Source: a virus. From it: a DNA stretch of 64,000 nt. Position numbers and translations under genes: made by a program. Numbering within the stretch: position 1 is the first letter of the stretch; each line of letters opens with the position of its first letter. Shown one piece after another: positions 40,743-59,580 of this stretch. The DNA is taken from positions 38,687 through 102,686 of the IMG/VR virus record IMGVR_UViG_3300032268_000887; one strand, 5' to 3'. The notes below the pieces were generated by a model. It was not told the origin of the DNA and made no database searches. It saw nothing but the letters and a program-made list of their open reading frames with translations.

Positions 40743-41342
40743 TTAAAGGTTTTCCCAAAGCGGATTTCCCCAATGAATATCTTCGTATTTTAAACCTAAA
40801 TATGGAGATTCTCCAATTGGAGCATTCCAAAAATCAGACAGGAACATGTCTTTTTCTGTGACCGTTGTAAAGCCTCTCATAAAGTCTTTAGTTTCTGGAA
40901 AAATAATGCAATCTCCAACCTTGAGTTCTTTTGCTATTTTATAATTTTCAAATTTAAATATTCCGCCACCATGGGAATCATTCCATTTGACTATTGATCT
41001 AAATACGTTTTTTGGCCTATCTTCTGAATAAAACATTGTTATTTCTTTTCCTGGAGAATATCTTAAAATATAACTTTTTCCAAGAATGGGACGATTATAT
41101 TCAATTCCTGTTATTTTAGTAACTGCTTCTTTTATAGCAATTGCATATTTTTCAAATATAGATACAACCTCTTTTGGCATATCCCCATAAGTAGTTATAT
41201 CAAAATTTATTCCAGGAATATTAAATAAAGAGTCATGAAGCGGTATATGATCTTCTGGAGTATTAAATTTTACAGAATTGAGAAATTCTTCAATAGTCTT
41301 TAAATCTTCTTTAGTAGCAACATTTATTATTTGGTAACTCAT
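40743..41342 (-). CDS. Prolyl-4-hydroxylase-like 2OG-Fe(II) fold protein, metal ligands apparently lost
   Basis: RYSPG..WNDSHGGGIFKF..GDCIIFP scaffold, but HxD site reads MFYSE and distal His site reads FMRG. Confidence 0.6.
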   Translation of the reverse strand: MSYQIINVATKEDLKTIEEFLNSVKFNTPEDHIPLHDSLFNIPGINFDITTYGDMPKEVVSIFEKYAIAIKEAVTKITGIEYNRPILGKSYILRYSPGKEITMFYSEDRPKNVFRSIVKWNDSHGGGIFKFENYKIAKELKVGDCIIFPETKDFMRGFTTVTEKDMFLSDFWNAPIGESPYLGLKYEDIHWGNPLWENL

Positions 41343-43501: not shown

Positions 43502-44197
43502 TTATAATAATGGGATCCATGGGATACCTGGATCATGTATTGCCTTACTTAGTGGAACAATATTAAAAGCAATGGTTATTCTTGGCTTGTCAAATGGCCA
43601 GGTATCTACTCCATGGTGGTAACCATTTAAAGAAAGAAGTATTTTTCCATTTTTGTTTTCATGTGCAAATAAAACATCGTGATCTAATTTATAAACTGTA
43701 GAGTTTGGCTCAGCATCAATTGCGTAATACCCATGAAACTCTGTTGGATCGCTACCGTGATCATCGTAAGCAATTTGTCCTGGTGTAACCACTTTAGGAC
43801 CTTTAGTATAATTAATCCAAGCAGACATGTAGTATTTTTCTTTTGCATAGTCAATTTCGTAATAATCGCAAGCCTCAATTACTAAATTTTTAACTAAAAG
43901 CATTACGTCATGCATTCTTGTATCCATAAAATTTAAAAAATTATAAGATTTTTGAAACGCTTGCATTTTTTCAGCATTATCTTTTTTGTACTCGATTGCG
44001 TCTCCAGTTATTTGATCTGTAGTAGACTTTAAATATTTCCAAGTTTCTTCTATAAAATTTCTTAACCCTGGATCATTTCTGTAAATTTCACCAGTAAAAA
44101 ACTTATGTGGCTTCCCAGTTTTTTCTAACATTGTTTGATTTGACATTTTATCTCCTTTTTTATTATTATTTTTGCTGTCTAGGTTAGTGGTATCCAC
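43502..44197 (-). CDS. Putative 2OG-Fe(II) oxygenase-like protein
   Basis: AWIN..YDDH..FHGYY..HHGV..PRITIAFN; paralog of the next two genes; start may be the internal MSNQ. Confidence 0.7.
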   Translation of the reverse strand: MDTTNLDSKNNNKKGDKMSNQTMLEKTGKPHKFFTGEIYRNDPGLRNFIEETWKYLKSTTDQITGDAIEYKKDNAEKMQAFQKSYNFLNFMDTRMHDVMLLVKNLVIEACDYYEIDYAKEKYYMSAWINYTKGPKVVTPGQIAYDDHGSDPTEFHGYYAIDAEPNSTVYKLDHDVLFAHENKNGKILLSLNGYHHGVDTWPFDKPRITIAFNIVPLSKAIHDPGIPWIPLL

Positions 44198-44856
44198 TTA
44201 TGTGGATCAAAATTTAACATGTTTTTTGCTGGAGATATGTCATAGGCAATAGTTATTCTTGGTTTATCTTCAAACCAATCATCTCTTCCATGTGGATGAC
44301 CAGTCTCTGACAGAATAGCCCTATTATTTTTGTTGATATTTTCAAAAATTTTGTCATCTTCTGCATCTATTTTATAAAATGTTGAAGAGGGTTCTGCATT
44401 AACACAGTAGTATCCATGAAACCAAGGAGCGCCCATGCCACCAGAATGATCATGAAAATGATGTGGATTTTTTAATGGATTTACGCCTCCATTATCTTTT
44501 TCTGATTTTATGGTTTTATAATCTAAATTAAACCAACCATGTATAAAATATTGCTCATTTTCAAAGTCTATGTCGTAATAATTGCACGCTTCTTTTGCCA
44601 ATTTGGAAAGTGATTTATACAGATTATGTATGGCTGGATGCGTAAATGTAAAAATATTATAATGATCTATTCCAAAAATTGTAACAGCGCCTGGATTATT
44701 TTTATGCTTTAAAAATAAATCATTGGGGATGCTGCAAATATTATCTTTTACAATTTTTTCGTTTAACTGTGTTAGATATTCAAAAAGACTATCTAAATTA
44801 TTATCAACATATGTATCAAAGAATTGATGTTTTTTTTTCATGCTAGAGGAATCCAA
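44179..44856 (-). CDS. Putative 2OG-Fe(II) oxygenase-like protein
   Basis: GWFN..FHDH..FHGYY..HPHG..PRITIAYD. Confidence 0.75.
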   Translation of the reverse strand: MDSSSMKKKHQFFDTYVDNNLDSLFEYLTQLNEKIVKDNICSIPNDLFLKHKNNPGAVTIFGIDHYNIFTFTHPAIHNLYKSLSKLAKEACNYYDIDFENEQYFIHGWFNLDYKTIKSEKDNGGVNPLKNPHHFHDHSGGMGAPWFHGYYCVNAEPSSTFYKIDAEDDKIFENINKNNRAILSETGHPHGRDDWFEDKPRITIAYDISPAKNMLNFDPHKWIPLT

Positions 44857-45485
44857 TGTTGCTCCCAGTCATACATAACCCCTTTAAAAGGAATAACATC
44901 ATACGCAATGGTTATTCTTGGACCAGCCCAATCCCAATCAGCCATAGCATGAGGATGTCCAGTTTCAGAAAGAATAGCCCTATTGTTTTTATTTATATTT
45001 TCAAAATCTTTATCAAATACTTTATAATGAGTTGTTGATGGTTCTGCCTTTACAGAATAATACCCGTGAAACCATGGAGCGCCCGAGCCACCATGCTCGT
45101 GCCAATCAAGTTTTCCAGTATGGCTATAATTAACATTAAACCAGCCTTGTACCCAAAAATCTTCTTTTTCAAAATCAAGATTATAATGTTTGCAAGCCTC
45201 AACAGTCATGTCCCTTACTGATCTAAATAATTTATGAATTGCTGGGTGATAAAATTGAAAAACATTATATTTATTCCACTTGCTTGTAGTTATACTTCCG
45301 GAAGAATCCCAAATAGTTTTTTCGCCTTTGTCATCTTTTAATATTTCGCCATTTTTAATACGTTCAGACTGTGCAATTAAAAAATTTGATAAATTGTCTA
45401 AGTCAGAGTCTAAAGTCCTTTCAAAAAATTTATGAGGGACGTCTTTATTTTGACTAGTACTTTTTAAAGGAACATTTTCGTACAT
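44838..45485 (-). CDS. Putative 2OG-Fe(II) oxygenase-like protein
   Basis: GWFN..WHEH..FHGYY..HPHA..PRITIAYD; TGCTATACT and GGAG upstream. Confidence 0.75.
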   Translation of the reverse strand: MYENVPLKSTSQNKDVPHKFFERTLDSDLDNLSNFLIAQSERIKNGEILKDDKGEKTIWDSSGSITTSKWNKYNVFQFYHPAIHKLFRSVRDMTVEACKHYNLDFEKEDFWVQGWFNVNYSHTGKLDWHEHGGSGAPWFHGYYSVKAEPSTTHYKVFDKDFENINKNNRAILSETGHPHAMADWDWAGPRITIAYDVIPFKGVMYDWEQHWIPLA

Positions 45486-45533
45486 TTAATCTCCATTTCT
45501 TTATATAGTATAGCATAAAGAAAATAAGATTTT

Positions 45534-46766
45534 TTACTTATTGTGTACTAAATAGTCTCCAGCAACAAACCAGTCCTGTGGCTCACAGTTAAACTGATAA
45601 ACGGTATGATTTTCATGAATTGTGTCGATAGTAACTATTGGGCATTCAAGTAAAGACCCATCTTCATTTACCTTAATCAATATATCTTCAGTAACAATTG
45701 ATGTTGTAGGAATAATCATGTAAGATCCTTCTCTTTTTATAAACATTGGCTGTGTAGCAGAATATTTCTTTTCTATTTCTCCATTAAAATAAATTACTTG
45801 TCCTTTAACACTTGGAACAATATTAACTACTTCAACTTCAACTAGTCCTTCTGAGGTTAAAGATGAAGATGTAAATCCAGAGTAGTCAAAATCTCCAGAA
45901 CTTTCAAGTGTTGGTATTTCAGAAATACCTAATGAAACTATTGTATCTCCAACATTAACGTCTTTAGCAGGAACTAAACCATTTGGTGTTCTAATTAATG
46001 TGTCCGCTTCAATACATGCACCACCACCCTGTGAAAATCCATATGGAGTGAAACCAAATGGCGTAAAACCAAACGGTGTAAAACCAAATGCTCCGAATGG
46101 TGTAAAGCCAAATGCTCCGAATGGTGTGAATCCAAAAGCACCGAACGGTGCGAATGAGAATGGTGTAAATGAGAATGATGTTACTGATCCTGAATTAGAA
46201 GATGTACCTGAATTACCATTAGCGTTAGTTGCATAAACGTTGTATGTTTGTGCTGTTCCCGCTTCTTGCGCTACAGTAACAGATGTTCCTCCCTGTGTTC
46301 CTCCCTTGCCATCGCTAGATGCCCAGGTGTAAGAAGTAATAGCACTTCCACCAGTTGCTGGTGCTGACCAGGAAACGTCATCATTTGCTGCTGCACCTTG
46401 TGCAGTTGCGCTAGGTGCTGATGGAGTTGCAGGAACTGTTGTTGCAGTTACTGGGCTGCTTGCTGAACTTGCTGCCGATGTTCCATAAGCATTAGTTGCA
46501 GTTACTGTAAATGTATAAGCAGTATCACTTGATAAACCTGTAACCCGAATTGGAGAACTCGAGCCAGAAGCGGTGTAATTTCCTGGGGTTGATAAAACTG
46601 TATAAGAGGTTGCAGCATTTCTTGGGTCTGCAGTGAAGGAAACATCTACAGCACCATCATCATATGGACGAGCAGTTCCAACATTGGATGCAGAATTAAT
46701 TGTTGGTGCATATGGCATTAAAAAGTCATTAGCACCTTGCGATTTACGACCACTTCTTTTACTCAT
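45534..46766 (-). CDS. FN3-FN3 + Phe/Gly/Thr/Pro repeat + C-terminal Hint domain protein
   Basis: FN3 (VTGLSSDTAYTFTVTATNAYG; SWSAPATGGSAITSY); repeat; Hint from CIEADTLI (C1 at 46014-46016) to GDYLVHNK*. Confidence 0.85.
   Translation of the reverse strand: MSKRSGRKSQGANDFLMPYAPTINSASNVGTARPYDDGAVDVSFTADPRNAATSYTVLSTPGNYTASGSSSPIRVTGLSSDTAYTFTVTATNAYGTSAASSASSPVTATTVPATPSAPSATAQGAAANDDVSWSAPATGGSAITSYTWASSDGKGGTQGGTSVTVAQEAGTAQTYNVYATNANGNSGTSSNSGSVTSFSFTPFSFAPFGAFGFTPFGAFGFTPFGAFGFTPFGFTPFGFTPYGFSQGGGACIEADTLIRTPNGLVPAKDVNVGDTIVSLGISEIPTLESSGDFDYSGFTSSSLTSEGLVEVEVVNIVPSVKGQVIYFNGEIEKKYSATQPMFIKREGSYMIIPTTSIVTEDILIKVNEDGSLLECPIVTIDTIHENHTVYQFNCEPQDWFVAGDYLVHNK
46035..46175 (-). repeat. Coding repeat FSFTP-FSFAP-(FGAFGFTP)3-(FGFTP)2-YGF
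   Basis: Read from translation; imperfect 24-nt and 15-nt DNA units. Confidence 0.95.
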
Positions 46767-46810
46767 AAACTCTTCTCCCCTTATTTATTAATTTTTTTAC
46801 TGTCTAACAA

Positions 46811-48313
46811 TTACGCTGTAAGATCTCCAAAGGCTACCCAAACGTTTGTATCACGCTTAAATAGTGTTGCAGATGACCACCGTGTACGAAGTTTTAGTCC
46901 AGGAGTAGCATTTACTGTTACTCCGCCTGCGCCAGCAAGAGTAACCTGTCCGACATTTGTTTGAAGAATATCTATGGTTGTTCCTATTGGATATGGGACT
47001 GAAGCGTGTGTTGGAATTGTGATTGTTTTTCCATCTGCATGACTTACCTCAATTAATGAATCTCTTTCGCTAAGAAGTGAAAGTTCATAATTATCTGTTT
47101 TTGGGATAATGTTTGTCCGTGAAGGAACGCCTTCTTTAGTCTGAGTTCCGTCTGTATAAGCAATACCATTTGCTGCAACAGTTACAAGACCTGTAAATGT
47201 AGGGGAAGCAAGTGGTGCCTTTAATGCAATTGAGTTTGCAGTTGTTGCTGCAAAGTTTGCGTCATCACCAAGTGCTGCTGCAAGTTCATCAAGAGTATTT
47301 AGAAGTCCTGGTGCAGACTCAGTTAATATAGCAATTTCTTGCTGCACAAACGCTGTAGTAGCAATCTGTGTTGTATTAGTTGCTGTATTTGCTGTTGGTG
47401 CAGTTGGAGTACCAGTAAGTGCTGGTGAAGCCAATGGTGCCTTAAGGTCAACAGAGGCCTGACTTGCTAATAGGCCAAGATCTGTTGTAAGGTTTGCGAT
47501 ATGAGATTGAGCAATGTTGTTTGCTAATTTAGCATCTGTTACTGCTCCATTTGCAATTTTTGCTGTTTCTACAGAGTCGCTAGCAAGTTTTGCTGCTGTA
47601 ACTGCTGCATTTGCAATCTTTCCTGTCTCTACTGCATCAGAAGCAATCTTTGCTGCTGTTACTGATGCTGATGAAGGAGTTCTTTCATCTGAAAGACGTG
47701 AATCGTTTGTGTAAACAAGGTTTAAGGTATTTGAGATACCATGAACGCTTGTGTTTGCTGATGAGTGACTTGATAGCGAGTTAGAAACTGCAGTAAGGTC
47801 TTCATCATAGACTAGGTTAAAGACGTTTGAAATACCATGAACGCTTGTATTTGCTGCAATGTGATCGTTTACGTCACCGCTAAGTTCTGACAAGGTGTTG
47901 GCATTAGTAGTTACAGTGTTTGACAGAGTAGAAAGATTATTAGCCAAAGCATCATTAGTAACACCTTGCGCTGTTAAAGTATTTTGTATGCTTGCAAAAT
48001 TATTGCTAATTGAATTTGCAAAAGATGGGTCATCGCCAATTGCTGCAGCAAGTTCATTAAAAGTATTTAAAGTGTTTGGTGCTGCGTCAATAATTGCGTC
48101 AATTGCAGAAGATACAGCGGCTGTTACTTCTGCTGAATCCATGACGGTTGATGCGTCTACGAAATATGTTAGGCTTGTGTATGCAGTGCTTCCGTTACCT
48201 ACTTTAAACTTATTGGTATCTGTTTCAAAACCAATTTCTCCTGCGCCCAGTACTGGATTTGCTGCAGTCCATTGTGCTGCTGTACCTCTGCGCTGTTGCA
48301 TTCTAGTTGCCAT
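46811..48313 (-). CDS. Fibre protein with Mtd-N-like N-terminus
   Basis: MQQRRGTAAQW..NPVLGAGEIGFETDT..FKVGNG; two AP..LNT..ELAAA.GDD.NF repeats; LASPALTGTPTAPT; C-terminal TPGLKLRTRWSSATL domain. Confidence 0.8.
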   Translation of the reverse strand: MATRMQQRRGTAAQWTAANPVLGAGEIGFETDTNKFKVGNGSTAYTSLTYFVDASTVMDSAEVTAAVSSAIDAIIDAAPNTLNTFNELAAAIGDDPSFANSISNNFASIQNTLTAQGVTNDALANNLSTLSNTVTTNANTLSELSGDVNDHIAANTSVHGISNVFNLVYDEDLTAVSNSLSSHSSANTSVHGISNTLNLVYTNDSRLSDERTPSSASVTAAKIASDAVETGKIANAAVTAAKLASDSVETAKIANGAVTDAKLANNIAQSHIANLTTDLGLLASQASVDLKAPLASPALTGTPTAPTANTATNTTQIATTAFVQQEIAILTESAPGLLNTLDELAAALGDDANFAATTANSIALKAPLASPTFTGLVTVAANGIAYTDGTQTKEGVPSRTNIIPKTDNYELSLLSERDSLIEVSHADGKTITIPTHASVPYPIGTTIDILQTNVGQVTLAGAGGVTVNATPGLKLRTRWSSATLFKRDTNVWVAFGDLTA

Positions 48314-48360
48314 TTTTCATTTCCTCCTGGGGGTTATGGGTATAATTATAACAGATTATT

Positions 48361-48816
48361 TTAGTTAAAATTATCTATTGCTGTTCCGCCATCATACGTT
48401 AATGTCCAAGATGATGTTGATGGTGACCCTGCATCTTGTGGTGTTCCTTGTGGTGCATTATAGAATCCACTACTTATAAATTGACTGACTATAAAGCCAG
48501 TTCCATCTATTGCTGTATCGTGAATGTGATCTGTTAGTGTTTGTGTGTCATCAATTGATGCAATTGTAATCCAAGAACCATTGTAATAAACGTTGGCTCG
48601 AGATGTTAACGTATCAAACCATAGTTGTCCATTTGTTGGAGAAACGGGGGCAGTTGATGATGCTGGCATTGAGCCAACTGCTGAATCAACATATGCTTTA
48701 GTGGCTGCATGGGTGCTTTCAGTTGGAGTTCCAACTACTACAGCATTTCCAAAACTACCGCCAGCAGTAACAATAAGGCCATTTTTGATCTTAAAGTCTT
48801 TTTCTACTGTTGCCAT
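48361..48816 (-). CDS. Short fibre/decoration protein
   Basis: MATVEKDFKIKNGL N-terminus shared with 48846 gene; HAATKAYVD; PTNGQLWFD. Confidence 0.65.
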   Translation of the reverse strand: MATVEKDFKIKNGLIVTAGGSFGNAVVVGTPTESTHAATKAYVDSAVGSMPASSTAPVSPTNGQLWFDTLTSRANVYYNGSWITIASIDDTQTLTDHIHDTAIDGTGFIVSQFISSGFYNAPQGTPQDAGSPSTSSWTLTYDGGTAIDNFN

Positions 48817-48845
48817 TTATCTCCCCCGTTTTTAGTTATTTTTTA

Positions 48846-50321
48846 TTACGCTACTAGTGTTCCGACAACTGTTACTGTTGAACTGTTATTAGCAGTTGTT
48901 ACATTGAGTCGGACATCTGCTCCTGAAATACTTGCTGAAATTGTTGATGCTGAACCATTGGTTCCAACAATTGCGTATTCAGTGATTGCAATGTTATCTG
49001 AAGTATCAAGTGTCAAAAGAACCTTTGAGATTTCAGTGTGTGCTCCATAAGCAACCTTTACAAGGTATTCTGCTGAACGGTATGTAGCCTTTGCAAAAGA
49101 ATGTGCTACTTGAATTCCTGCTGTTGGTGCTGATAGTTGTGCTGCAACCTGCTTAGCAACTGTGTTTAACTCAACTGCTGTAAATTTTGGAACAACTGCT
49201 TCAAGAGCAGATACTGCACGAGCATTTGAGAAGTAAAGATTTGAAGTTCCTTCTGACAAATCATCAGTATCAGAATCTCCTACACCGTTTTCAGCAGTGA
49301 TAGTAAGTCCTGAACCTGAGCCTGTTATTGTGATGTTTGAAAGTGTTGCGTTAGTTAAAAGATCTGCTGCTGCAGACTTTGAACGAGCATTTGAGAAGTA
49401 AAGGTTAGAAGCACCTTCTTCAATATCGTCTGTGTCAAGTGCTGCGATTGCATTTGCTGCGGTTCCTGCTGCGTCATATGATGCTGCAGTTGCTGCTTGT
49501 GCACGAGCATTTGAGAAGTAAAGATTAGAAGCACCTTCTGAAACATCATCTGTGTCAAGGCTAGTTACAGAAATTGTATTTCCTGTAATATCAATGTTTG
49601 ACCCTGCAGTTAAAATGTTTTGCTTTAATGCAACTGAGTTAGCAAGTGTTACAGCAAAGTTTGCGTCATCACCAATTGCGTTTGCTAATTCATTAAGAGT
49701 ATTAAGCAAATCTGGTGCTGAATCAACAATTGCTGCTACAGCGTTGGCTGCTGCTTCATCTGCATAATCTTGTGCATCTGATAATGCATTTGCTGCTGCG
49801 CCTGCAAGATCGTATGATCCAGCAAGTGCTGCTTGGGCACGTGCATTTGAGAAGTAAAGGTTTGTTGTACCTTCTGTTAGGTCGTCAGTATCAGAATCTG
49901 CTACACCGTTTTCTGCAGAGATAGTAAGTCCTGAACCTGATCCTGTAATTGTAATGTTTGTTAGAGTTGCACCAGTTAAAAGATCTGCTGTTGCAGACTT
50001 TGAACGTGCATTTGTAAAGTAAAGGTTTGAAGTGCCTTCTGATAAATCATCAGCATCAAAGTTTGAAATGTCTGATACTTGACCAGTTACATCTCCAACA
50101 AGATCTGCTGTTATTACATTTGCAGCAAAGTTTTTGTTGCCATCACGAAGTACAATAGAGTTTGCTACTGATGCTGAGTTTGCTACTCCGCCAACAAGTC
50201 CCTGTATGTAAGTTGTGTCTCCTGCTGATTTTGTAAGAACGTCATTTCCGTTAACGGTTGCTGTAGCACCTTCAACGATTAGACCATATTTAACTTTAAA
50301 ATCTTTTGTTACTGTTGCCAT
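48846..50321 (-). CDS. Fibre protein with internal repeats
   Basis: Five DDxxEGxxNLYFxNAR repeats plus one APDLLNTLNELA repeat; C-terminal domain shared with 50337 gene. Confidence 0.8.
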   Translation of the reverse strand: MATVTKDFKVKYGLIVEGATATVNGNDVLTKSAGDTTYIQGLVGGVANSASVANSIVLRDGNKNFAANVITADLVGDVTGQVSDISNFDADDLSEGTSNLYFTNARSKSATADLLTGATLTNITITGSGSGLTISAENGVADSDTDDLTEGTTNLYFSNARAQAALAGSYDLAGAAANALSDAQDYADEAAANAVAAIVDSAPDLLNTLNELANAIGDDANFAVTLANSVALKQNILTAGSNIDITGNTISVTSLDTDDVSEGASNLYFSNARAQAATAASYDAAGTAANAIAALDTDDIEEGASNLYFSNARSKSAAADLLTNATLSNITITGSGSGLTITAENGVGDSDTDDLSEGTSNLYFSNARAVSALEAVVPKFTAVELNTVAKQVAAQLSAPTAGIQVAHSFAKATYRSAEYLVKVAYGAHTEISKVLLTLDTSDNIAITEYAIVGTNGSASTISASISGADVRLNVTTANNSSTVTVVGTLVA

Positions 50322-50336
50322 TTTGTATCTCCTAGG

Positions 50337-50783
50337 TTATGCCTTAAGTCCCATACGTGCGTAACGTACGGTGATCGGGCGGATTGATATGTCGGGATCT
50401 ACTGTTAAATAAACAGTGTTTCCACTTCTAGAGACGCTTATGGTGCCAATATTCCCATCATTGTCTATCGTGCCGTACTCGCTTACGGAAATGTCGCTTC
50501 CATCTACAAGTATTGTCATCTCTGTGGCATAAAATTTATTATCGCCAGCAGAAGTCTTTGAAATTGCTATCAGATATTTAACCATTCGCCATTCAGTTGC
50601 ACTGAAACTGTCTATTGTGGTTAAATTTTCAATACCAGTAATAGTATTGTCATTGTTACCCGCAGACCCTAAACTTGTTGCTTGGGATGCAGTAGTATCA
50701 ATAAGATTTATGTAATCGGCCTGTGTAGGGCGGTCACCTGTTTGAAACAAATTCTTTACATTTGGGATTGATATGATTGCCAT
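50337..50783 (-). CDS. Virion decoration/fibre-associated protein
   Basis: FQTGDRPTQADY N-terminus; C-domain paralogous to 48846 C-terminus; leaderless -10 at 50790-50795. Confidence 0.6.
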   Translation of the reverse strand: MAIISIPNVKNLFQTGDRPTQADYINLIDTTASQATSLGSAGNNDNTITGIENLTTIDSFSATEWRMVKYLIAISKTSAGDNKFYATEMTILVDGSDISVSEYGTIDNDGNIGTISVSRSGNTVYLTVDPDISIRPITVRYARMGLKA

Positions 50784-50806
50784 GGCATTATTATAACATT
50801 ATTTTA

Positions 50807-51370
50807 TTACAGTTTTTCAATCCAAACCTGATAACCTTTTTGTAAAATTTTAATCTTAAGTTCGTTGTTTTTTAAAAATTTATCAATACCATTTAAAGGT
50901 TTTAAGTCAACATTTCGACTTGGGTGCTCCCATCCGTAATCATCAAAGGCAAGGATTCCTCCTGATTTTAAAAGCGGGAATGCTAAAATTGCATCATTAT
51001 AAACACCTTCTGCCGAATGATCTCCATCTATATATATAAAGTCAAACTTTGCATCAGAAGAAGATAGGTATTCTTTGCTATCTTTTTTGATCTTTATAGA
51101 ATTAGGGAACTGGCTCATTTTTTCATCATACATTGATTCAATTTCATCCCAGTCAAATTCTGTGTGAATTTTTTCTTTTGAGCCTTTCCAAGTATCTATG
51201 TCTGTAAGGCTTGATGCTTTGTCTGTTAATATATTTTTTAGCAGCCACTCAGAGCCATGGCCAAGGTATACCCCAATTTGTAAAAAGTTAACATCTGGAA
51301 GATCTTTATACTTGTTTAAAAATTTTTCAAATGTTGGAATGTTGCTAGAAAACCAATTTGGGTACTTCAT
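50807..51370 (-). CDS. Class I SAM-dependent methyltransferase (Methyltransf_24-like)
   Basis: LQIGVYLG, DIDTW, FDFIYIDGDH, LKSGGILAFDDY. Confidence 0.88.
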   Translation of the reverse strand: MKYPNWFSSNIPTFEKFLNKYKDLPDVNFLQIGVYLGHGSEWLLKNILTDKASSLTDIDTWKGSKEKIHTEFDWDEIESMYDEKMSQFPNSIKIKKDSKEYLSSSDAKFDFIYIDGDHSAEGVYNDAILAFPLLKSGGILAFDDYGWEHPSRNVDLKPLNGIDKFLKNNELKIKILQKGYQVWIEKL

Positions 51371-52094
51371 GATTCCTCCAATATTCTAAGGTCTGTTCTT
51401 TTGATGTTGTGTGAATAGAAAATTTACCAGTCTCTTCTGCTGTTTTATCAAATTCTAAATTAATTGAAGACCCATAATCCATTGTGTAAGTAAAAAGTGG
51501 AATAGATAAGGTTTTACAACCATCATATATCAGAATATCTGCTAATGCTGCTCGTGAAGTTGGCAAGACATATTTTCCATCAACAAAGTATTGTTTTAAT
51601 AGAGTCTCCGCCCTGCTTCTTTTAATTAAATAACATGCTGCAGACCAATCTCTTTTTTCTTTCATATGTAAGGATGGATTGACTCTATAGTTATGAATAA
51701 TGCAAAGTTGTAACATGTCATATGGTTTTTTTATTGATTCTACGAAATTAGAAAATTCAAAATTCCAAAAGTCTACAGTTTCTAGACTTAAATCGTCTTC
51801 AGTAATAATTGCATATTCAGAATCTGAAGTTTCTAGCCAATGTTTAATTGTTTCAAGATGCGAGATAGTTGCTCCTAATTCATTTTTTGCTAATTGAAGT
51901 TTATCTTTTTCAAAAACAATTTTATCAAAATCAAAAGTGTCACCATCATAGGCTGGAATAATTTTATAATCTTTTATTTCATACTTTTCAAAATGATTTT
52001 TTATATAGTCTAGCCTGTCTGACTTAGACTCAAGATTAATTACGTATATTGGGGACAACCCCTTTAATTTATTTAAACCAGTATGTTCCAGCAT
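51345..52094 (-). CDS. Glycosyltransferase family 25
   Basis: YVINL..DRL, AYDG, ELGATISH, IITEDD. Confidence 0.85.
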   Translation of the reverse strand: MLEHTGLNKLKGLSPIYVINLESKSDRLDYIKNHFEKYEIKDYKIIPAYDGDTFDFDKIVFEKDKLQLAKNELGATISHLETIKHWLETSDSEYAIITEDDLSLETVDFWNFEFSNFVESIKKPYDMLQLCIIHNYRVNPSLHMKEKRDWSAACYLIKRSRAETLLKQYFVDGKYVLPTSRAALADILIYDGCKTLSIPLFTYTMDYGSSINLEFDKTAEETGKFSIHTTSKEQTLEYWRNHEVPKLVF

Positions 52095-52782
52095 GGGACA
52101 CCCTCACATATGGCGCAAGATAAATTTTTCCACCACTTTCTTTCCATAGTTTGCAAAATTGATAATCTTCAGATAACAATCTTTCGCTTTCGTCATCAAT
52201 TGTTGTTTGCCAAAAATCATATATTGGGTCCCCAAAAACAATGCTACCAATCTGTGGCTGATCACACCTATATTGTTTGATATCTTTTTTAATTGTTTCA
52301 AGAACATTCCTGGATATTAACATTAAGCCAGTGCCCATGTAATCAACTTCTGCTATGGTATTTGGATTTTCTTTTAACATTTTTCTTTGTTCTTTATTCA
52401 TATTAACATTAAATATTGCAGTGTGCTCATCTAAATTTTCTTTACCATCTAAAACGGCCTTTTTTACTCTTGCCCAATTAATAGCCTTCATTGGTACTGC
52501 TGCGCCAATCAGGTCTACATTTTCATTTATCATTCTTACAACAGCCTGTGCGTCAAAACCTTGATCTGCATCTATAAATAAAAGATAGTCACTCATACTT
52601 CTTAAAAACATTTCTGTCAAAGTATTTCTTGCTCTGGTAATTAAAGACTCATTAGAAAGATCAATAAAATTAAGTTGATGTCCTGCATTAGAAACTGCTT
52701 GGGCCAACTGTAAAACACTTTTCATAAAAGCGCCACTACACATACCGCCATACATTGGCGTTGCCAAAGTAATATGAGCCAT
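52069..52782 (-). CDS. GT-A fold glycosyltransferase-like protein
   Basis: ATPMYGG, NESLITRARN, LFIDAD (DxD), GTGLMLI, LSEDYQFC, H.G. Confidence 0.8.
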   Translation of the reverse strand: MAHITLATPMYGGMCSGAFMKSVLQLAQAVSNAGHQLNFIDLSNESLITRARNTLTEMFLRSMSDYLLFIDADQGFDAQAVVRMINENVDLIGAAVPMKAINWARVKKAVLDGKENLDEHTAIFNVNMNKEQRKMLKENPNTIAEVDYMGTGLMLISRNVLETIKKDIKQYRCDQPQIGSIVFGDPIYDFWQTTIDDESERLLSEDYQFCKLWKESGGKIYLAPYVRVSHAGTYWFK

Positions 52783-52793
52783 TGTTCTCCTAT

Positions 52794-52994
52794 CTATAAA
52801 ATGTAGTTACTATACCCGATTACTTGTAGTGGAATTGGAGGTGGGTTTCCTGGACCAAACCCTTCAACACCAATACTTGTAAAGCGAACTCTAAAAGGTA
52901 ATACTTCATTTATTAAAATAATTCTTGGATAATCTGCTAAATTGATTTTTTTTGCTTTTACAGATGTTTTGCTTTTTAATACTGCAGTGGACAT
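52794..52994 (-). CDS. Hypothetical protein
   Basis: 66 aa, coupled to the 52994 gene. Confidence 0.6.
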   Translation of the reverse strand: MSTAVLKSKTSVKAKKINLADYPRIILINEVLPFRVRFTSIGVEGFGPGNPPPIPLQVIGYSNYIL

Positions 52995-53404
52995 TAGTCT
53001 GTGACATCCTCAAGGACAACCAAACTTCCTTGAGCGACAGTCCAAACTTGAGCATTTCCTGCAGAGGACAGTTGTATGTCAAAAATATCTCCGGTTATCA
53101 AAGATACTGATTCTGCTGCTGTTAAAGAAACAGTAAACTCTCCTGGCAAATCATCTGCGTCACGAATTGGTGTTAATGCCATAATTGTTACAGCGTCATC
53201 TGTAATTTTTCCTAAATTTGCAGCAAGATTTGGACGTTTAATTTTCATTGCAATTGTCCAGTCTGCAATAGTCAAGGGACTCTTTGCATCATCGGTTACA
53301 TAAACTTTAAATGCTGAGGTATCCCCTTTTACAAAAGTCCAAACCACTGTTGGTGGTTTTTCTCCAACATCATATTCTTTATTTCTGCTTCTTGTTGTTG
53401 CCAT
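52994..53404 (-). CDS. BppU-N-like beta-sandwich virion protein
   Basis: FVKGDT..FDIQL..TVAQG; paralog of 58376 and 59683; leaderless -10 at 53411-53416. Confidence 0.55.
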   Translation of the reverse strand: MATTRSRNKEYDVGEKPPTVVWTFVKGDTSAFKVYVTDDAKSPLTIADWTIAMKIKRPNLAANLGKITDDAVTIMALTPIRDADDLPGEFTVSLTAAESVSLITGDIFDIQLSSAGNAQVWTVAQGSLVVLEDVTD

Positions 53405-53420
53405 GATTTAATTATAACAC

Positions 53421-53951
53421 TTAAAGTCCGTTTTTAACAGCACCCCAAGTGGCATTTCCTCCTTTGATAGGCGAAACTAATATTTTTCCATCTGTTGCAT
53501 GTGAATATGAAACAACCCCGACAACTCCAGAACCATCTGTTGGGCGAGTATCGGTTAGTCCACCAGAAGCGCCAATATAAAGTTTGTCTCCTTCAGAATA
53601 TGTGGAGGTATTGATATTTTCTAAAACTCCAATTGTTACTACAACTCCTTCTTGCCCATCTAAAATTTGAGCCTTTGTCAAACCAACACATGGGAATGTA
53701 TTAATATCATCAGACTCACATTTTTCAACAGTTGCCTTACCACTAGAGTATCCAGTTATATATACGGGAGTTCCTTTTATTAATGTTGCCCCGCTTATAT
53801 TTTTTACATCAAGAGATAAATAAGGGACCTGTAGGGCAGTAAGTAAGTCATTTACCCTTTCTGCCAATCCCTGCATATCAGAATGAACGTTTACTGGATC
53901 ATCTGACAGCGGATATGGTATTAATTGCGGAGTTGTTGAACCTGATGCCAT
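53421..53951 (-). CDS. Putative virion decoration protein
   Basis: PYP..D..LAERVN N-terminus; VKNISGATLIKGTPVYI..GDKLYI domain. Confidence 0.5.
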   Translation of the reverse strand: MASGSTTPQLIPYPLSDDPVNVHSDMQGLAERVNDLLTALQVPYLSLDVKNISGATLIKGTPVYITGYSSGKATVEKCESDDINTFPCVGLTKAQILDGQEGVVVTIGVLENINTSTYSEGDKLYIGASGGLTDTRPTDGSGVVGVVSYSHATDGKILVSPIKGGNATWGAVKNGL

Positions 53952-53984
53952 AATTTTATATTATACCACTAAAAGCATTGGGGG

Positions 53985-54014
53985 TTGACAAAAACAGTTT
54001 GAGGTTGCTATAAT
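53985..54014 (+). promoter_or_regulatory. Consensus sigma70/SigA promoter
   Basis: TTGACA (53985-53990), 18 nt, TATAAT (54009-54014) with TG extension; divergent TGGTATAAT at 53960-53968. Confidence 0.85.
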
Positions 54015-54060
54015 TAAGTTATTGACACCGAAAGGTGTTATTTTACTTATAGGAGGATCT

Positions 54061-54588
54061 ATGAATAAAGAAGATTTTATTACTGGGATTGCCGGAAGTT
54101 TTATTGCTGCTGTGGTTGGTTTAACTGGGGCTAATGCAGATCTAAAAGAAATTGTGCCTGTAGAAACGGCAAATGAAAAGGCTGAGTCAGGAACTCCCTC
54201 CGCAATAAAAACAAAATATGCCAACGTTACGACCTTGTCAGATAAAGAATTAAAGAGTTTGTTAAAGGCGGTTGGCTTTGAAGGACAAGGTTTAAAAATG
54301 GCATGGGCGGTTGCTAAAAAAGAAAGCAATGGCAGACCTTTAGCCTTTAATGGCAACAAAGACACTGGGGACCATTCATTTGGAATATTTCAAATTAATA
54401 TGAATGGAGAGTTAATGGAAAGTAGATTAGAGAAATTTGACCTTAATTCTGTTTCTGATCTTTTTAATCCAGTAACTAATGCGGAGATTGCATTTTATAT
54501 GACAAAAGGTGGAAAAGATTGGTCATCATGGACCTATCTTGATGGGGAAAGAATTAAGCAGTTTTTGGCTAAATATCCAACGGTTTAA
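54061..54588 (+). CDS. Lysozyme-like/lytic transglycosylase with N-terminal hydrophobic anchor
   Basis: AVAKKESNG (catalytic E), SFGIFQIN, LFNPVTNAEIA, WSSW; AGGAGG before ATG 54061. Confidence 0.85.
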   Translation: MNKEDFITGIAGSFIAAVVGLTGANADLKEIVPVETANEKAESGTPSAIKTKYANVTTLSDKELKSLLKAVGFEGQGLKMAWAVAKKESNGRPLAFNGNKDTGDHSFGIFQINMNGELMESRLEKFDLNSVSDLFNPVTNAEIAFYMTKGGKDWSSWTYLDGERIKQFLAKYPTV

Positions 54589-55197
54589 CTAAAAATAGCC
54601 GACTAAGCAATATTTTTTTCCAGAAACAACTTCTTCTTCTTTGTGTTGATATTGATTGCTAGATGGAAAAATTAAAACATCTCCCTGCTCTATGCGAAGT
54701 GGCTCATTGCCAAGCCTATCTTTAAAATAAAACTCTCCACCAACATAATCATTGTTAAGGCCAATAATTATTGTATATTTATTTTTAGATCCATCTCTAT
54801 CGATGTTGTTGTGAAAAACATTTGACTCTTTTTGTAAGCATATAGTCCAATCTTTTACTCCCTTAATTTTTAATTCCAAACTATCAACATAATCTTTTAT
54901 AAAATTAAAAGCATAAAAAGTAATTAAACTTTTTAGTTTGCATGTTTCGTAATAGCGTTTTGTTTCTTCTGGATTGTTGTTATTTATAATTTTTTCTAAA
55001 TTATATGTACCAGATTTTAAATAGAAAACTTGTTTGTCTAAAGTAAAATCAGTATCTCTTATATTTGACTTTGAAGAAATCTCCCAAACATTTCCATCTA
55101 TTGCTGCGCTTTCAATACTCTCTAAATTTAATAAAAAATTTGGAACATTATTGTTTTTATATAAAAATATATCGCTATCTAATTGTTTTTTTATCAT
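54589..55197 (-). CDS. Prolyl-4-hydroxylase-like 2OG-Fe(II) protein
   Basis: FHNNID..LNNDYVGGEFYF..GDVLIFPS..YQH..VVSGKKY. Confidence 0.75.
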   Translation of the reverse strand: MIKKQLDSDIFLYKNNNVPNFLLNLESIESAAIDGNVWEISSKSNIRDTDFTLDKQVFYLKSGTYNLEKIINNNNPEETKRYYETCKLKSLITFYAFNFIKDYVDSLELKIKGVKDWTICLQKESNVFHNNIDRDGSKNKYTIIIGLNNDYVGGEFYFKDRLGNEPLRIEQGDVLIFPSSNQYQHKEEEVVSGKKYCLVGYF

Positions 55198-55198
55198 T

Positions 55199-55828
55199 TT
55201 ATATATTGTTTCCTAACAAGATCATATTTTCTGTTACATAGAAATTTCCATTAGATAAAGACATAGAAAATAATGGCATTTTGTTTGTTGCTAATAAAGC
55301 GGACTTTATTTGTTTGTCAAAAACAAAAAAGTTTTTAGTGTCTGTTTTAATATCTTTTTCTAAAGATATAAAATATTCAGGTTCTGGTTCAATATTAATA
55401 TTTAATTTATTAATATTTAATCTTGAAATCGTTTTTATTTTAACTATATTTTCATCTTTAATTTTACTGTCGTCTTTTCCCTTAGCAACAACATTGACAG
55501 TTAAGAATAACTGACTTTCGTGTACAAGACTAACATTATTATTTGCGTCAATAAGTGGGATAATTCTAGACTTATGTTGGCTATGGTGCCTGATGTCTGT
55601 AATGTGGGATGATGATATTTGCAACTGTTCTGGATTAATTTTTATTGTATTGTTATTAAAATATTTAAAATATGTATCTGCAGAACTATCTAGATCTTCT
55701 CCCAATAAATTAATAGATAAAATTTCATCACCAAACTTTAAATTTTCAATTTCAACTAATTCTCTATTTTTTAAATAAATTTTTGTTCCTATTGGAATAA
55801 ACCCGAACGCTTCATCATTTATTGACAT
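55199..55828 (-). CDS. Stand-alone degenerate Hint-like protein
   Basis: FIPIGTKIYL..EIENLKFGDEILSI matches Hint block A without Cys1; ends FYVTENMILLGNNI rather than FVAG.YLVHNK. Confidence 0.65.
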   Translation of the reverse strand: MSINDEAFGFIPIGTKIYLKNRELVEIENLKFGDEILSINLLGEDLDSSADTYFKYFNNNTIKINPEQLQISSSHITDIRHHSQHKSRIIPLIDANNNVSLVHESQLFLTVNVVAKGKDDSKIKDENIVKIKTISRLNINKLNINIEPEPEYFISLEKDIKTDTKNFFVFDKQIKSALLATNKMPLFSMSLSNGNFYVTENMILLGNNI

Positions 55829-55838
55829 ATAAAATTTT

Positions 55839-56696
55839 CTACTTATTATGTACTAGATAGTTTCCGGCAACAAACCAGTCTTGTGGTTCGCAACCAAACT
55901 GATAAACTGTTGCATCCTCTGTTAAATAATCAATATTTAAAATTTCTGTTTCTAGCAATTGTCCATCTGGATCAATAGAAATTAAAAAGTCTCCAACTTC
56001 TATGGCACCAGAAGGAATTATTTCATAATAAGTATTTCTTTTAATAAAAAATGGCTGAGATGTAGAAAATAGTGCAGAATTATCTTGATTAAAAAACAGC
56101 AAACTATTTTTTACTGATGGAAGAATGTCTACTATTGTGGTAAGAGTTTTTTCTTGTACCGTTAATGTTGATGATATAAAACCAACATAGTCAAAATCTG
56201 ATCCACCATCTATTCCGGCATTTGGAATTTCGTCAAAAGAGACAGAAACAATTTCATCCCCAACCTGTAAATCTTTTGCCTTTATTTTTCCACTTGAAGT
56301 ATCAATTAATGTATCTTCGTGAACGCAAGACGGTGGAGAAAATGTAAATGGCCCTGGAGTAAAACCAAATGGGGTAAATCCAAATGGGGTAAAACCAAAT
56401 GGGGTAAAACCAAATGCTCCAAACGGAGTAAAACCAAATGCTCCAAACGGAGTAAAACTAAAAGTATAATTTACTAGGTTAACATTTGTTCCAATAGCCT
56501 GAACTTCTCCTGCTGCAATACTTTGAGTTTTAATTGTATTGTTTTGCCCAGCATCTGTTGTATTTTCATTTGTTGTATTATAAACAAAGCCAGCATTGGT
56601 TAAATTTGTCTCTGCAGTAGTTTTTGCAACCCCAACTACGTTTGGGACTGAGTTTTTACGTGATCCCTTATTTCCACGGCCAATATTTTTTGCCAT
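55839..56696 (-). CDS. PASTA + Phe/Gly/Thr/Pro repeat + C-terminal Hint domain protein
   Basis: VPNVVG..A...L.NAGF..IKTQS..AG..GTNVNL (PASTA); repeat; Hint from CVHEDTLI (C1 at 56325-56327) to GNYLVHNK*; start at TAATG overlap 56696. Confidence 0.85.
   Translation of the reverse strand: MAKNIGRGNKGSRKNSVPNVVGVAKTTAETNLTNAGFVYNTTNENTTDAGQNNTIKTQSIAAGEVQAIGTNVNLVNYTFSFTPFGAFGFTPFGAFGFTPFGFTPFGFTPFGFTPGPFTFSPPSCVHEDTLIDTSSGKIKAKDLQVGDEIVSVSFDEIPNAGIDGGSDFDYVGFISSTLTVQEKTLTTIVDILPSVKNSLLFFNQDNSALFSTSQPFFIKRNTYYEIIPSGAIEVGDFLISIDPDGQLLETEILNIDYLTEDATVYQFGCEPQDWFVAGNYLVHNK
56340..56462 (-). repeat. Coding repeat FSFTP-(FGAFGFTP)2-(FGFTP)3-GPFTF
   Basis: Read from translation; near-exact 24-nt and 15-nt DNA units. 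Confidence 0.95.
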
Positions 56697-57316
56697 TATG
56701 CAACCAAATCTCCCATAGCAACCCAAGTGTTTGCTGCACGTTTTACAATCGTTGCGCTAGACCATTGTGTTCTAATTTTTAATCCAGGGGTGGCATTTAC
56801 TGTTACCCCACCTGCACCAGCAATTGTAACTTGAGATGAAGATGTTTGCAAAATATCAATAGCGGTGCCAACTGGGAAATTAAATGTGGCGTCTGCGGGA
56901 ATTGTTAAGGTTCCGCCAGCAGACATTTCTATCATCTTAAAAGAATCTGATTCCACAATAGTGTAAGAAGATGCTTGTGGATTAAAAGTGTATAGAGGGT
57001 CTACTATTGATAGCCAGGCTGTTCCATCATAAACTTGTAAGTCATTTATAACATTTCCGTTAGCATCTTGTTTTAAAAATACAACAGTTCCATAAATTGG
57101 TGTAGCAATTGCTGCAATTCTTGCTGCTGGGTTTAAAAAGATATTAACATTTTTTGCAACTACGGTAGAGTTTAAAGATACAGTAGAGTCAAATGTTTGT
57201 GCTGCAGTCCAAGTATATGCTGATGCTGTGTTTACTTTTCCCGCAAGTTCATACCACTGATCAGTAGCCTCATCATAAACATATCCTGGTCTTGGCGTTG
57301 AATTAAATGTTGGCAC
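56696..57316 (-). CDS. Short fibre protein
   Basis: C-terminal FPVGTAIDILQT..TPGLKIRTQWSSATIVKR..WVAMGDL domain, paralogous to 46811 C-terminus. Confidence 0.75.
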   Translation of the reverse strand: MPTFNSTPRPGYVYDEATDQWYELAGKVNTASAYTWTAAQTFDSTVSLNSTVVAKNVNIFLNPAARIAAIATPIYGTVVFLKQDANGNVINDLQVYDGTAWLSIVDPLYTFNPQASSYTIVESDSFKMIEMSAGGTLTIPADATFNFPVGTAIDILQTSSSQVTIAGAGGVTVNATPGLKIRTQWSSATIVKRAANTWVAMGDLVA

Positions 57317-58761: not shown

Positions 58762-58832
58762 CTTTGAGTGAAGGAATCGAACCTTCATTATCAGGTTCGG
58801 AACCTGGAGTCCGACCATTAGACGAACTCAAA
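58762..58832 (-). tRNA. tRNA, anticodon CCG (nominally Arg; atypical body)
   Basis: Cloverleaf TTTGAGT/ACTCAAA, D GTCT/GGAC, anticodon arm CCAGG-TTCCGAA-CCTGA, T arm GAAGG-TTCGATT-CCTTC, G73, no encoded CCA; TGGTATAAT at 58849-58857. Confidence 0.9.
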
Positions 58833-58857: not shown

Positions 58858-59580
58858 TTAACAGATAGAAATAGTCATGCTTTTTAAAATCATATCTGAT
58901 GGAAAGTCGGTTCTTATTTGTGGCTTTGCTATACCCCTAAAAGATGCATCCTCTATATATAGGGTTTGATCTATAATAAAATCATAGGTATTTTGATATT
59001 TTAAAGATCCTACAAAATTTACATGCTCTTTGTTATTTTTTGCAAAAAGCGTTCTTACCCAAACGTCAGTATTTGCAGAGTAAGTTGATAGTTCAATGTT
59101 ATAAGAAATTTGTACTTTTGTTCCTGTTTTAAGACCTAAAAAATTAAACCCTTGCGCCTCGTCAATCCATAGCCTTTCGTTATCTTTGGGCAAAAACTCT
59201 TCATTGCTTAACTTTCTTTTAAAATTAAGAGTTACCCAGCCATTATCTCCTTCTGTTATTCCTAAATTTATTTTTTGTGTTTGAGAATTATAGTATTTTG
59301 CCCAACCTGGTTGTTGTCCAGATAAAGATATTCCATCTTTAGGAGTTTTTCCATCTTTGCCTTTTTCTCCCCTTGCCCCCTCTGGTCCTGTAAGTCCAGT
59401 ATCGCCTTTTGGTCCAGCAGGTCCTTGTGCTCCTTGTGGGCCTTGTGGTCCTGGAACTGGAACATATGTTTGTGTGGCAGGAAAAATTTCTGAAGGTATA
59501 TTTTGTTGCGCTTCTATAACTTTTTCAATATATGAATCTTTTGTTGCAAATGGCGTTGGCACGTTTTTACTTATTGCCAT
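58858..59580 (-). CDS. Collagen-repeat virion protein
   Basis: GPQGPQGAQGPAGPKGDTGLTGPEGARGEKGKDGK followed by a globular domain. Confidence 0.85.
   Translation of the reverse strand: MAISKNVPTPFATKDSYIEKVIEAQQNIPSEIFPATQTYVPVPGPQGPQGAQGPAGPKGDTGLTGPEGARGEKGKDGKTPKDGISLSGQQPGWAKYYNSQTQKINLGITEGDNGWVTLNFKRKLSNEEFLPKDNERLWIDEAQGFNFLGLKTGTKVQISYNIELSTYSANTDVWVRTLFAKNNKEHVNFVGSLKYQNTYDFIIDQTLYIEDASFRGIAKPQIRTDFPSDMILKSMTISIC

Follow-up and report, generated by a model that had tools for sequence, protein, structure and literature searches.

A duplicated tail-fibre module with tract-bearing Hint proteins and adjacent oxygenase-type genes in an IMG/VR phage genome

A 64,000-nucleotide stretch of phage DNA (here called the window; bases 38687-102686 of the 102,686-bp IMG/VR record IMGVR_UViG_3300032268_000887, whose completeness is estimated at 94%) contains the same gene order twice: a tail-fibre gene, a gene for a protein in which a short-period aromatic tract runs directly into a C-terminal Hint domain, and one or more genes for putative 2-oxoglutarate (2OG)/Fe oxygenases. 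Hint domains act through an N-S acyl shift at their first residue, Cys1; the resulting thioester is hydrolysed or attacked by a nucleophile, and a terminal Asn can cyclise. The closest described domains are of the bacterial intein-like (BIL) type, which cleave or ligate their flanks and are not mobile inteins (PMC8616854). In the BIL2 domain of Tetrahymena, the thioester is resolved by a Lys residue to give an isopeptide in an ATP-free reaction (PMC8616854). The A-type BIL domain of Clostridium thermocellum (2lwy) and BIL2 of the Tetrahymena BUBL1 locus (6y75 and 6tmm) are the best sequence and fold matches of the Hint domains in the window and share with them Cys1, a C-terminal His-Asn, and the absence of Cys, Ser, or Thr at +1. 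Unlike these domains, the Hint in the window forms the extreme end of its protein together with one Lys, lies behind a low-complexity tract in a phage fibre module, and has Gln in place of the block-B His.

Other described systems resemble single parts of the locus. The tract-Hint protein has the layout of Hedgehog/Hog proteins (1at0): a thioester formed by the C-terminal Hint would, by analogy, set free a working N-terminal part. It differs from them in having no sterol-recognition extension or evidence of lipid transfer and in keeping the His-Asn of inteins. Phage tailspikes and fibres can carry C-terminal chaperone domains of the Peptidase_S74 type that cleave themselves off with a Ser-Lys dyad. 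These are likewise C-terminal domains of fibre proteins that remove themselves once their job is done, but the fold and thioester chemistry of the Hint are unrelated to theirs, and Pfam gave no Peptidase_S74-type match in the module proteins. For decoration by oxygenases, the closest precedent by analogy is the prolyl 4-hydroxylase (P4H) of chlorovirus PBCV-1, which acts on viral Pro-rich repeats (PMC3634087). The two cases have in common a virus-encoded P4H-type 2OG oxygenase and short-period repeats as a possible substrate, and the precedent fits Pro-rich relatives of the module. In the window, however, most of the enzymes belong to a 2OG family with no Pfam model, the single P4H-type enzyme lacks the Asp of the HxD motif, and the tracts are Pro-poor.

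When the Hint domain alone was used as the query, its sole match among GenBank phages was in jumbo phage NCTB (LT598654; 27% identity, E 4e-4). There, a "putative phage tail protein, contains intein domain" runs from Cys1 to a terminal His-Asn and is followed by a small "intein domain protein," an order comparable to that of the copy-B Hint protein and a degenerate Hint in the window. Unlike the window, NCTB has a collagen-like N-terminal part and an acidic/Gly linker rather than an aromatic tract, is a jumbo phage, and is known by annotation alone. In this surface-water phage (L154; 7960-9941 and 11305-15219), the collagen-like tail protein with a terminal Hint and the small second Hint gene are accompanied by a 1304-aa "large intein domain protein" among fibre genes. 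The literature on BIL/Hint domains in phage fibres and on phage P4H targets, as far as our incomplete coverage of it extends, does not describe this system.

Our reading of the locus, to which we give roughly an even chance, is that it encodes a fibre accessory protein with a self-removing Hint cap that exposes the tract, together with oxygenases that decorate the tract or the fibres. Each copy would be a tail-fibre accessory module in which the fibre gene ends in a domain that we name FIBC, and FIBC would be the partner of the tract-Hint protein on the fibre. The product of the next gene would consist of a basic leader, a surface-binding part (formed by a pair of Ig-like domains in copy A and by a peptidoglycan-type PASTA domain in copy B), a disordered Phe-rich tract, and a BIL-type Hint. 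The Hint would serve as a removable cap: Cys1 would form a thioester at the junction between tract and Hint, the Hint would depart, and the mature protein would end in the exposed aromatic tract. We infer this step from the chemistry of the family and from naturally Hint-less versions of the protein. The function would lie in the tract, which would give a fibre-borne binding protein a sticky or docking tail. Finally, the products of the downstream genes (oxyA, oxyB, and oxyC after copy A; a degenerate Hint and a P4H-type enzyme after copy B) would include 2OG/Fe oxygenases that probably hydroxylate the tract or fibre proteins; this is the least certain step, and it rests on the conserved gene neighbourhood. 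Aquatic phage genomes are rich in 2OG/Fe oxygenase genes without a known substrate, and the module offers a concrete candidate substrate beside such genes. If the reading holds, such "metabolic" genes would serve to decorate the virion.

Two copies of a fibre, tract-Hint, and oxygenase gene order

The duplication had been noticed in a reading of the window made without database searches (the sequence-only reading), and it holds: the genes named there are all open on the minus strand (Table 1), and the order fibre, tract-Hint protein, oxygenase(s) occurs twice. The arrangement is far above chance and recurs in dozens of distinct phage contigs.

Table 1 Features of the duplicated module and of the genes between its copies (window coordinates)
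Feature	Coordinates	Strand	Description
oxyA	43502..44197	-	231 aa; divergent oxyC paralogue, 29% identity; phrog_2696
oxyB	44179..44856	-	225 aa; oxyC paralogue, 47% identity; alignment with invariant His/His/Arg columns
oxyC	44838..45485	-	215 aa; predicted 2OG/Fe-oxygenase fold, family without a Pfam model
HintA	45534..46766	-	410 aa; basic leader, fn3 and second Ig-like (PKD-like) domain, FSF/FGAFGFTP/FGFTP tract ~46017-46175, BIL-type Hint 45537-46016 (Cys251 to His-Asn-Lys-stop)
Fibre A	46811..48313	-	500 aa; Mtd_N N-terminus (Pfam E 2e-15), fibre repeats, C-terminal FIBC ~46814-47158; PHROG tail fibre families
GT-A-like, GT25, and Methyltransf_24 genes	50807..52782	-	Pfam and PHROG; inside fibre block, outside conserved module
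P4H-type 2OG-Fe(II) oxygenase	54589..55197	-	202 aa; PF13640 28.2 bits versus cutoff of 27; PHROG 2OG-Fe(II) oxygenase
Degenerate stand-alone Hint	55199..55828	-	209 aa; without Cys1 and His-Asn, ends ..GNNI
HintB	55839..56696	-	285 aa from ATG; basic leader, PASTA (Pfam E 2e-7), FGAFGFTP/FGFTP tract ~56328-56462, BIL-type Hint 55842-56327 ending His-Asn-Lys-stop
Fibre B	56696..57316	-	206 aa; C-terminal FIBC ~56699-57043

The C-terminal domain that the two fibres had been said to share is present in both. This domain, FIBC, spans about 110-150 residues (46% identity, E 2e-33) and includes nearly invariant Lys residues. Fibre A has many PHROG tail-fibre matches, and the PHROG/Pfam-type matches of fibre B are confined to its C-terminal 100 residues. 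The stop codon of fibre B and the ATG of HintB share one base; this ATG, at 56696, is the likely start of HintB, giving the 285-aa form found in the database.

Pfam confirmed that HintA and HintB have different surface domains, and each begins with a basic N-terminal leader that is conserved among its homologues. From the first FSF unit of the tract to the stop codon, in contrast, the two proteins are 56% identical (E 2e-79). The claim that the two repeats are written in different codons was true only in part: the DNA of the shared units is mostly identical (mean column identity of 76% over the whole HintA/HintB repeat alignment, gaps included), and most of the differences that do occur are at third codon positions. 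The tract is nevertheless kept at the protein level, with variation in unit and copy number. In the AlphaFold (AF2) model of HintB, the PASTA domain (residues 12-80) and the Hint (residues 121-285) are confident, and the predicted local distance difference test (pLDDT) score of the tract (residues 85-120) is below 50; the tract is thus predicted to be a disordered segment between two confident domains.

Several comparisons show that the Hints are of the BIL type, which agrees with the self-processing type that had been proposed. A profile built from 20 diverse members found C. thermocellum BIL 2lwy as its best solved relative in the PDB (E 3e-8), followed by mini-inteins; the Pfam intein and Hint models matched below threshold. 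In the HintB model, pLDDT is mostly above 85 across the Hint, with one 10-residue block near 67, and a Foldseek search with this domain placed Tetrahymena BIL2 6y75 (E 8e-8), 6tmm, and 2lwy at the top, along with many mini-inteins. Hedgehog 1at0 matched at a template modelling (TM) score of 0.77, normalised to the target. Cys1 is invariant in one alignment of the family (A1) and present in at least 90% of sequences in another (A2), with Ser1 in some relatives. Both window Hints end in LVHNK-stop, an ending that is nearly invariant in the close family and is that of an A-type BIL: a C-terminal His-Asn with no Cys, Ser, or Thr at +1. With a single residue (Lys) after the Hint there is no functional C-extein, unlike in a canonical mobile intein, and the protein stops one residue past the Hint with no sterol-recognition region, unlike in Hedgehog/Hog proteins. 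Block B reads Ser-x-x-Gln in both window Hints, versus Thr-x-x-His in inteins, and relatives alternate between Gln and His.

The gene downstream of HintB had been called a dead Hint. Its product aligned with the Hint family in hhalign (97.7%, E 1.7e-12), identifying it as a true homologue; BLAST of this protein against HintB was not significant. In one related locus (L015), the positional counterpart of this gene still encodes a Cys at position 1.

Related loci and natural variants of the tract protein

A search seeded with the Hint protein gave 279 homologues, and a scan of IMG/VR yielded 64 loci, onto which the window proteins and custom profiles were mapped. The co-occurrence of repeat-Hint genes with oxygenases, which the sequence-only reading had suggested checking in other phages, is borne out in these 64 related loci: Hint genes follow a FIBC gene, and oxygenase genes usually come next. 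A FIBC gene lies immediately upstream of 42 of the 45 unique Hint genes. PASTA and FN3 forms co-occur on the same long contigs, in some phages fusion joins the tract and Hint to fibre-like proteins 730-890 aa long, and distant family members lack the HNK ending.

In every member from the related loci, a short-period low-complexity tract, aromatic and/or Pro-rich, abuts residue 1 of the Hint. Its unit differs by lineage (FGFTP/FGAFGFTP, VFSFAP, PFFPPFFPFFP, HFPPHFPP, SFPP, GFFAPP, YYNP, or GFYHGFSH), as do the genes behind it. Downstream of Pro-poor tracts of the FGFTP type are one to four genes of the oxy family, to which oxyA, oxyB, and oxyC belong. Pro-rich tracts (30-45% Pro) are followed by P4H arrays, mostly of four to eight genes within 8 kb, although some have none; the arrays start right after the Hint gene and reach eight genes within this distance. 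Other genes placed after the Hint in relatives encode an Asp/Asn beta-hydroxylase, DUF6065 proteins, and a protein with a weak match to Skp1-type GlcNAc-transferase. From its gene content, the set that follows the Hint looks like a protein-decoration island. In a whole subclade, a gene of the Sulfotransfer_2 family lies directly between the Hint and oxy genes (L125:7223-7936; L124, L129-L139, and similar loci).

In the Hint-domain tree, the PASTA-type and FN3-type Hints of one lineage group together and do not group by N-terminal domain (both Hints of L025; L010 with L018/L019; window 45537-46016 and 55842-56327). Because the Hints cluster by lineage rather than by the type of N-terminal domain, the two paralogues seem to undergo exchange or homogenisation of the cassette of tract plus Hint.

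We also approached the locus from the oxy family, independently of the Hint. It turned up 408 stretches; the 80 best were retrieved and, after dereplication, gave 50 loci that extend at least 4 kb upstream. A tract protein is encoded upstream of the first oxy gene in 46 of the 50. Among these proteins are naturally Hint-less forms, FN3-FN3-tract or PASTA-tract, whose genes occupy the same position, after FIBC and before the oxy genes. In L084, L085, L134, L141, and L145, the gene stops just past the tract (..FR-stop). Other Hint-less tract proteins carry short Cys-rich tails (..NWYGCAGWC and ..GCTPCCCGYYGCVQDGCHI; L119:7201-7926, L120, and L128:6515-7738). Some relatives have forms with Ser1 and no His-Asn, and there are PASTA forms whose tract is entirely without Pro (GFYHGFSHGYGGF).

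Because natural Hint-less, Ser1, and Pro-free variants exist, the working product would appear to be the N-terminal domain plus the tract with a free end, with the Hint dispensable. Within the oxy subclade, the constant feature of the tract, judged from these sequences, is the combination of aromatic and small residues, not proline. A basic C-terminal end might be what splicing onto the +1 Lys provides, given that Arg is the last residue of the Hint-less forms and that Lys occupies -1 in several Ser1 forms. Pro-rich tracts, however, already bear an Arg near their end. What the window and its relatives add to the known systems here is a large Pfam-less oxygenase family, together with Hint-less and Ser1 variants that indicate the form of the mature product.

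The oxygenases, their candidate substrate, and competing explanations

Pfam gave no match for the three genes at 43502-45485. The oxy family has 738 homologues, with no Pfam domain among the 120 listed. That these genes encode oxygenases, as the sequence-only reading had it, is supported by a predicted structure with the double-stranded beta-helix (DSBH) fold of 2OG/Fe enzymes: in a Foldseek search, the AlphaFold model of oxyC (pLDDT 89) matched best the uncharacterised DSBH proteins 3bvc and 2rg4 (TM 0.63-0.67), and further matches included FtmOx1, ThoJ, and prolyl hydroxylases, among them the P. putida P4H. His131, His140, His179, and Arg190 are invariant in 25 sequences of the family, making them candidate metal and 2OG ligands by alignment.

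The copy-B gene that had been called P4H-like passes the PF13640 threshold, but its product does not have the HxD...H triad: the HxD columns read H-N-N, with the distal His kept. Orthologues read H-D-D in L003 and I-D-D in L010. This copy may be weakened, like the adjoining degenerate Hint. Another P4H-type gene, with no obvious HxD, lies just after the ribonucleotide reductase (RNR) gene (window 40743-41342, minus strand). A collagen-like minor tail protein is encoded at window 58858-59580 (minus strand); in its approximately 13 Gly-X-Y triplets, Pro occurs mainly in the Gly-Pro-X position, with one X-Pro-Gly. Since Pro is mostly at the X position, this protein is a weak candidate for the target of a P4H-type enzyme.

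That the oxygenases act on the tract is plausible from the conserved gene neighbourhood. The more Pro a tract contains, the more P4H genes tend to follow it (Spearman 0.45, p 0.008, n 33, raw and uncorrected for ancestry). Hydroxylation of Pro, as first suggested, fits the window itself poorly: its tracts are only 12-15% Pro, with one Pro per 5-8 residues, and the enzymes encoded behind them belong to another oxygenase family rather than to P4H arrays of the kind that accompany Pro-rich tracts. The window contributes a Pro-poor FGFTP variant with a different oxygenase family, along with a duplication of the module, a degenerate Hint with a P4H-like gene next to it, and a change of site between genomes.

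The sequence-only reading had also drawn the genes between the two copies into the pathway. GT25, GT-A-like, and Methyltransf_24 genes are indeed present there, but more distant relatives have the module without them. This glycosyltransferase/methyltransferase operon occurs in 11-13 of the 64 loci, all of them close relatives among those listed. Because more distant relatives keep the module and have the two genes that flank the operon next to each other, the operon is best read as an insertion in the fibre block and not as a part of the module.

Several findings count against the proposed cap and its decoration. The block-B Gln means that the activity of the Hint could be weak or conditional. 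HxD is incomplete both in the copy-B P4H, which has no Asp, and in the L010 orthologue, which has no His. In the Pro-poor tracts of the window, the residue that would be modified is not evident. No tract gene lies within 8 kb in 4 of the 50 oxy-seeded loci, and this genome has four more PF13640 genes at 65-75 kb from the module (G000:C1 4864-15200, near whiB). Finally, the correlation between Pro content and P4H count is inseparable from shared ancestry, as the Hint tree provides one to four independent contrasts and hence no power.

The last three of these points favour an alternative that we regard as possible although clearly less probable than our reading: the oxygenases are unrelated to the Hint proteins and form a movable accessory island, common in aquatic phages, at the end of the structural block, so that their adjacency is inherited synteny. 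A single backbone in all loci, from fibres through Hint and oxygenases to RNR and polymerase, is also in its favour. Against it, copy B comes with an oxygenase of its own despite its location amid the structural block, and oxygenases stay downstream of tract genes that have no Hint. The position of the P4H array in three genomes argues the same way. In G001, the sole Hint is at the copy-B site and is followed by the whole array of eight PF13640 genes, and the copy-A site is empty (a g48361-like gene is followed directly by RNR). G002 has a Hint at both sites and the array after the site-A Hint, and in G003 the array follows the single Hint, at site A. Therefore, the oxygenase array travels with the Hint-tract gene, and the module changes site between genomes.

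A second alternative, which we consider unlikely, concerns the Hint instead. It might ligate, as BIL2 does, with the thioester resolved by a lysine (the +1 Lys, a FIBC Lys, or an amine of the host wall) to give a branched fibre or covalent adsorption. The isopeptide-forming BIL2 is the best structural match, close family members almost invariably end in His-Asn-Lys, the constant neighbour FIBC supplies nearly invariant Lys residues, and copy B has a PASTA domain. However, Hint-less relatives and Ser1 relatives without His-Asn manage without a ligation step, distant members do not have HNK, and no acceptor was identified. A fuller version of this alternative, slightly less likely again, makes the Hint a one-shot, enzyme-free ligase that joins a hydroxylated aromatic tail and its Ig-like or PASTA head to a FIBC or wall lysine, with the +1 Lys and the degenerate Hint taking part. 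If the Hint is a ligase, the outcome would be branched fibres (with a FIBC lysine) or covalent, irreversible adsorption (with a host-wall lysine).

The short repeated units beside tailoring-type enzymes had also suggested precursors resembling ribosomally synthesized and post-translationally modified peptides (RiPPs), in which tandem FGFTP cores would be tailored by the enzymes and then released. We consider this very improbable. The N-terminal Ig-like and PASTA domains are large and folded, and the genes sit among fibre genes and are translationally coupled to them. There is no leader/core logic, and the region from 43 to 58 kb contains no protease, cyclase, or exporter gene. Moreover, the units drift freely in sequence and number, Pro-only linkers included, and some phages fuse the tract to fibre-like proteins of 700-900 aa. 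The related suggestion that the Hint cyclises the repeat found no support. Least probable of all is that the phage has no use for the Hints, which would then be selfish mini-inteins or remnants in decay; this would suit their intein-like sequence and fold and the adjacent degenerate copy but not a C-extein of one residue, the lack of a homing endonuclease, the position of the Hint at the C-terminus behind a tract across clusters (almost always in the best matches, with a tract in most of 84), or its conservation at both sites across diverged phages.

Breadth of the Hint family and the source genome

The Hint profile was searched against 1.84 billion representative proteins and matched 3063 clusters at E <=1e-3, of which 599 reach E <=1e-10. 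The Hint is almost always at the extreme C-terminus among the 150 best. Of the 84 clusters that extend far enough towards the N-terminus, most have a low-complexity tract rich in Pro and/or aromatic residues abutting the Hint, and some of these tracts are Pro-only linkers. The window also contributes a family, over 3000 sequence clusters in size, whose BIL-type Hint is terminal in the best matches and usually stands behind a low-complexity tract. Five metagenomic proteins of 500-1350 aa (P0303, P0331, P0338, P0370, and P0388) are multi-Hint, with five to eight tandem matches to the Hint profile.

The source genome encodes a WhiB product (gene whiB), and the nearest matches to its class II RNR (about 60% identity) are the enzymes of Mycobacterium phage Gaia and Actinomycetia phage DSL-LC01. 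On the strength of WhiB and this RNR, the phage is assigned to an actinobacterial host; its lineage is uncultured and aquatic. The GC content of the window is approximately 30-42%. A megablast search of the region against GenBank phages found no match at the DNA level, and tblastn searches with HintA and oxyC against GenBank phages likewise found none.

A tRNA-Arg gene with anticodon CCG, confirmed by ARAGORN, lies within the fibre gene block (window 58762-58832, minus strand). Promoter and terminator scans gave background levels and were uninformative on operons. The sole plus-strand gene of the block, at 54022-54588, encodes an SLT-type lytic transglycosylase and is located between the copy-B module and the gene for a cement-like protein. 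Just 5' of this gene, at window 53985-54014 (plus strand), is a perfect TTGACA-18-TATAAT with an extended TG.

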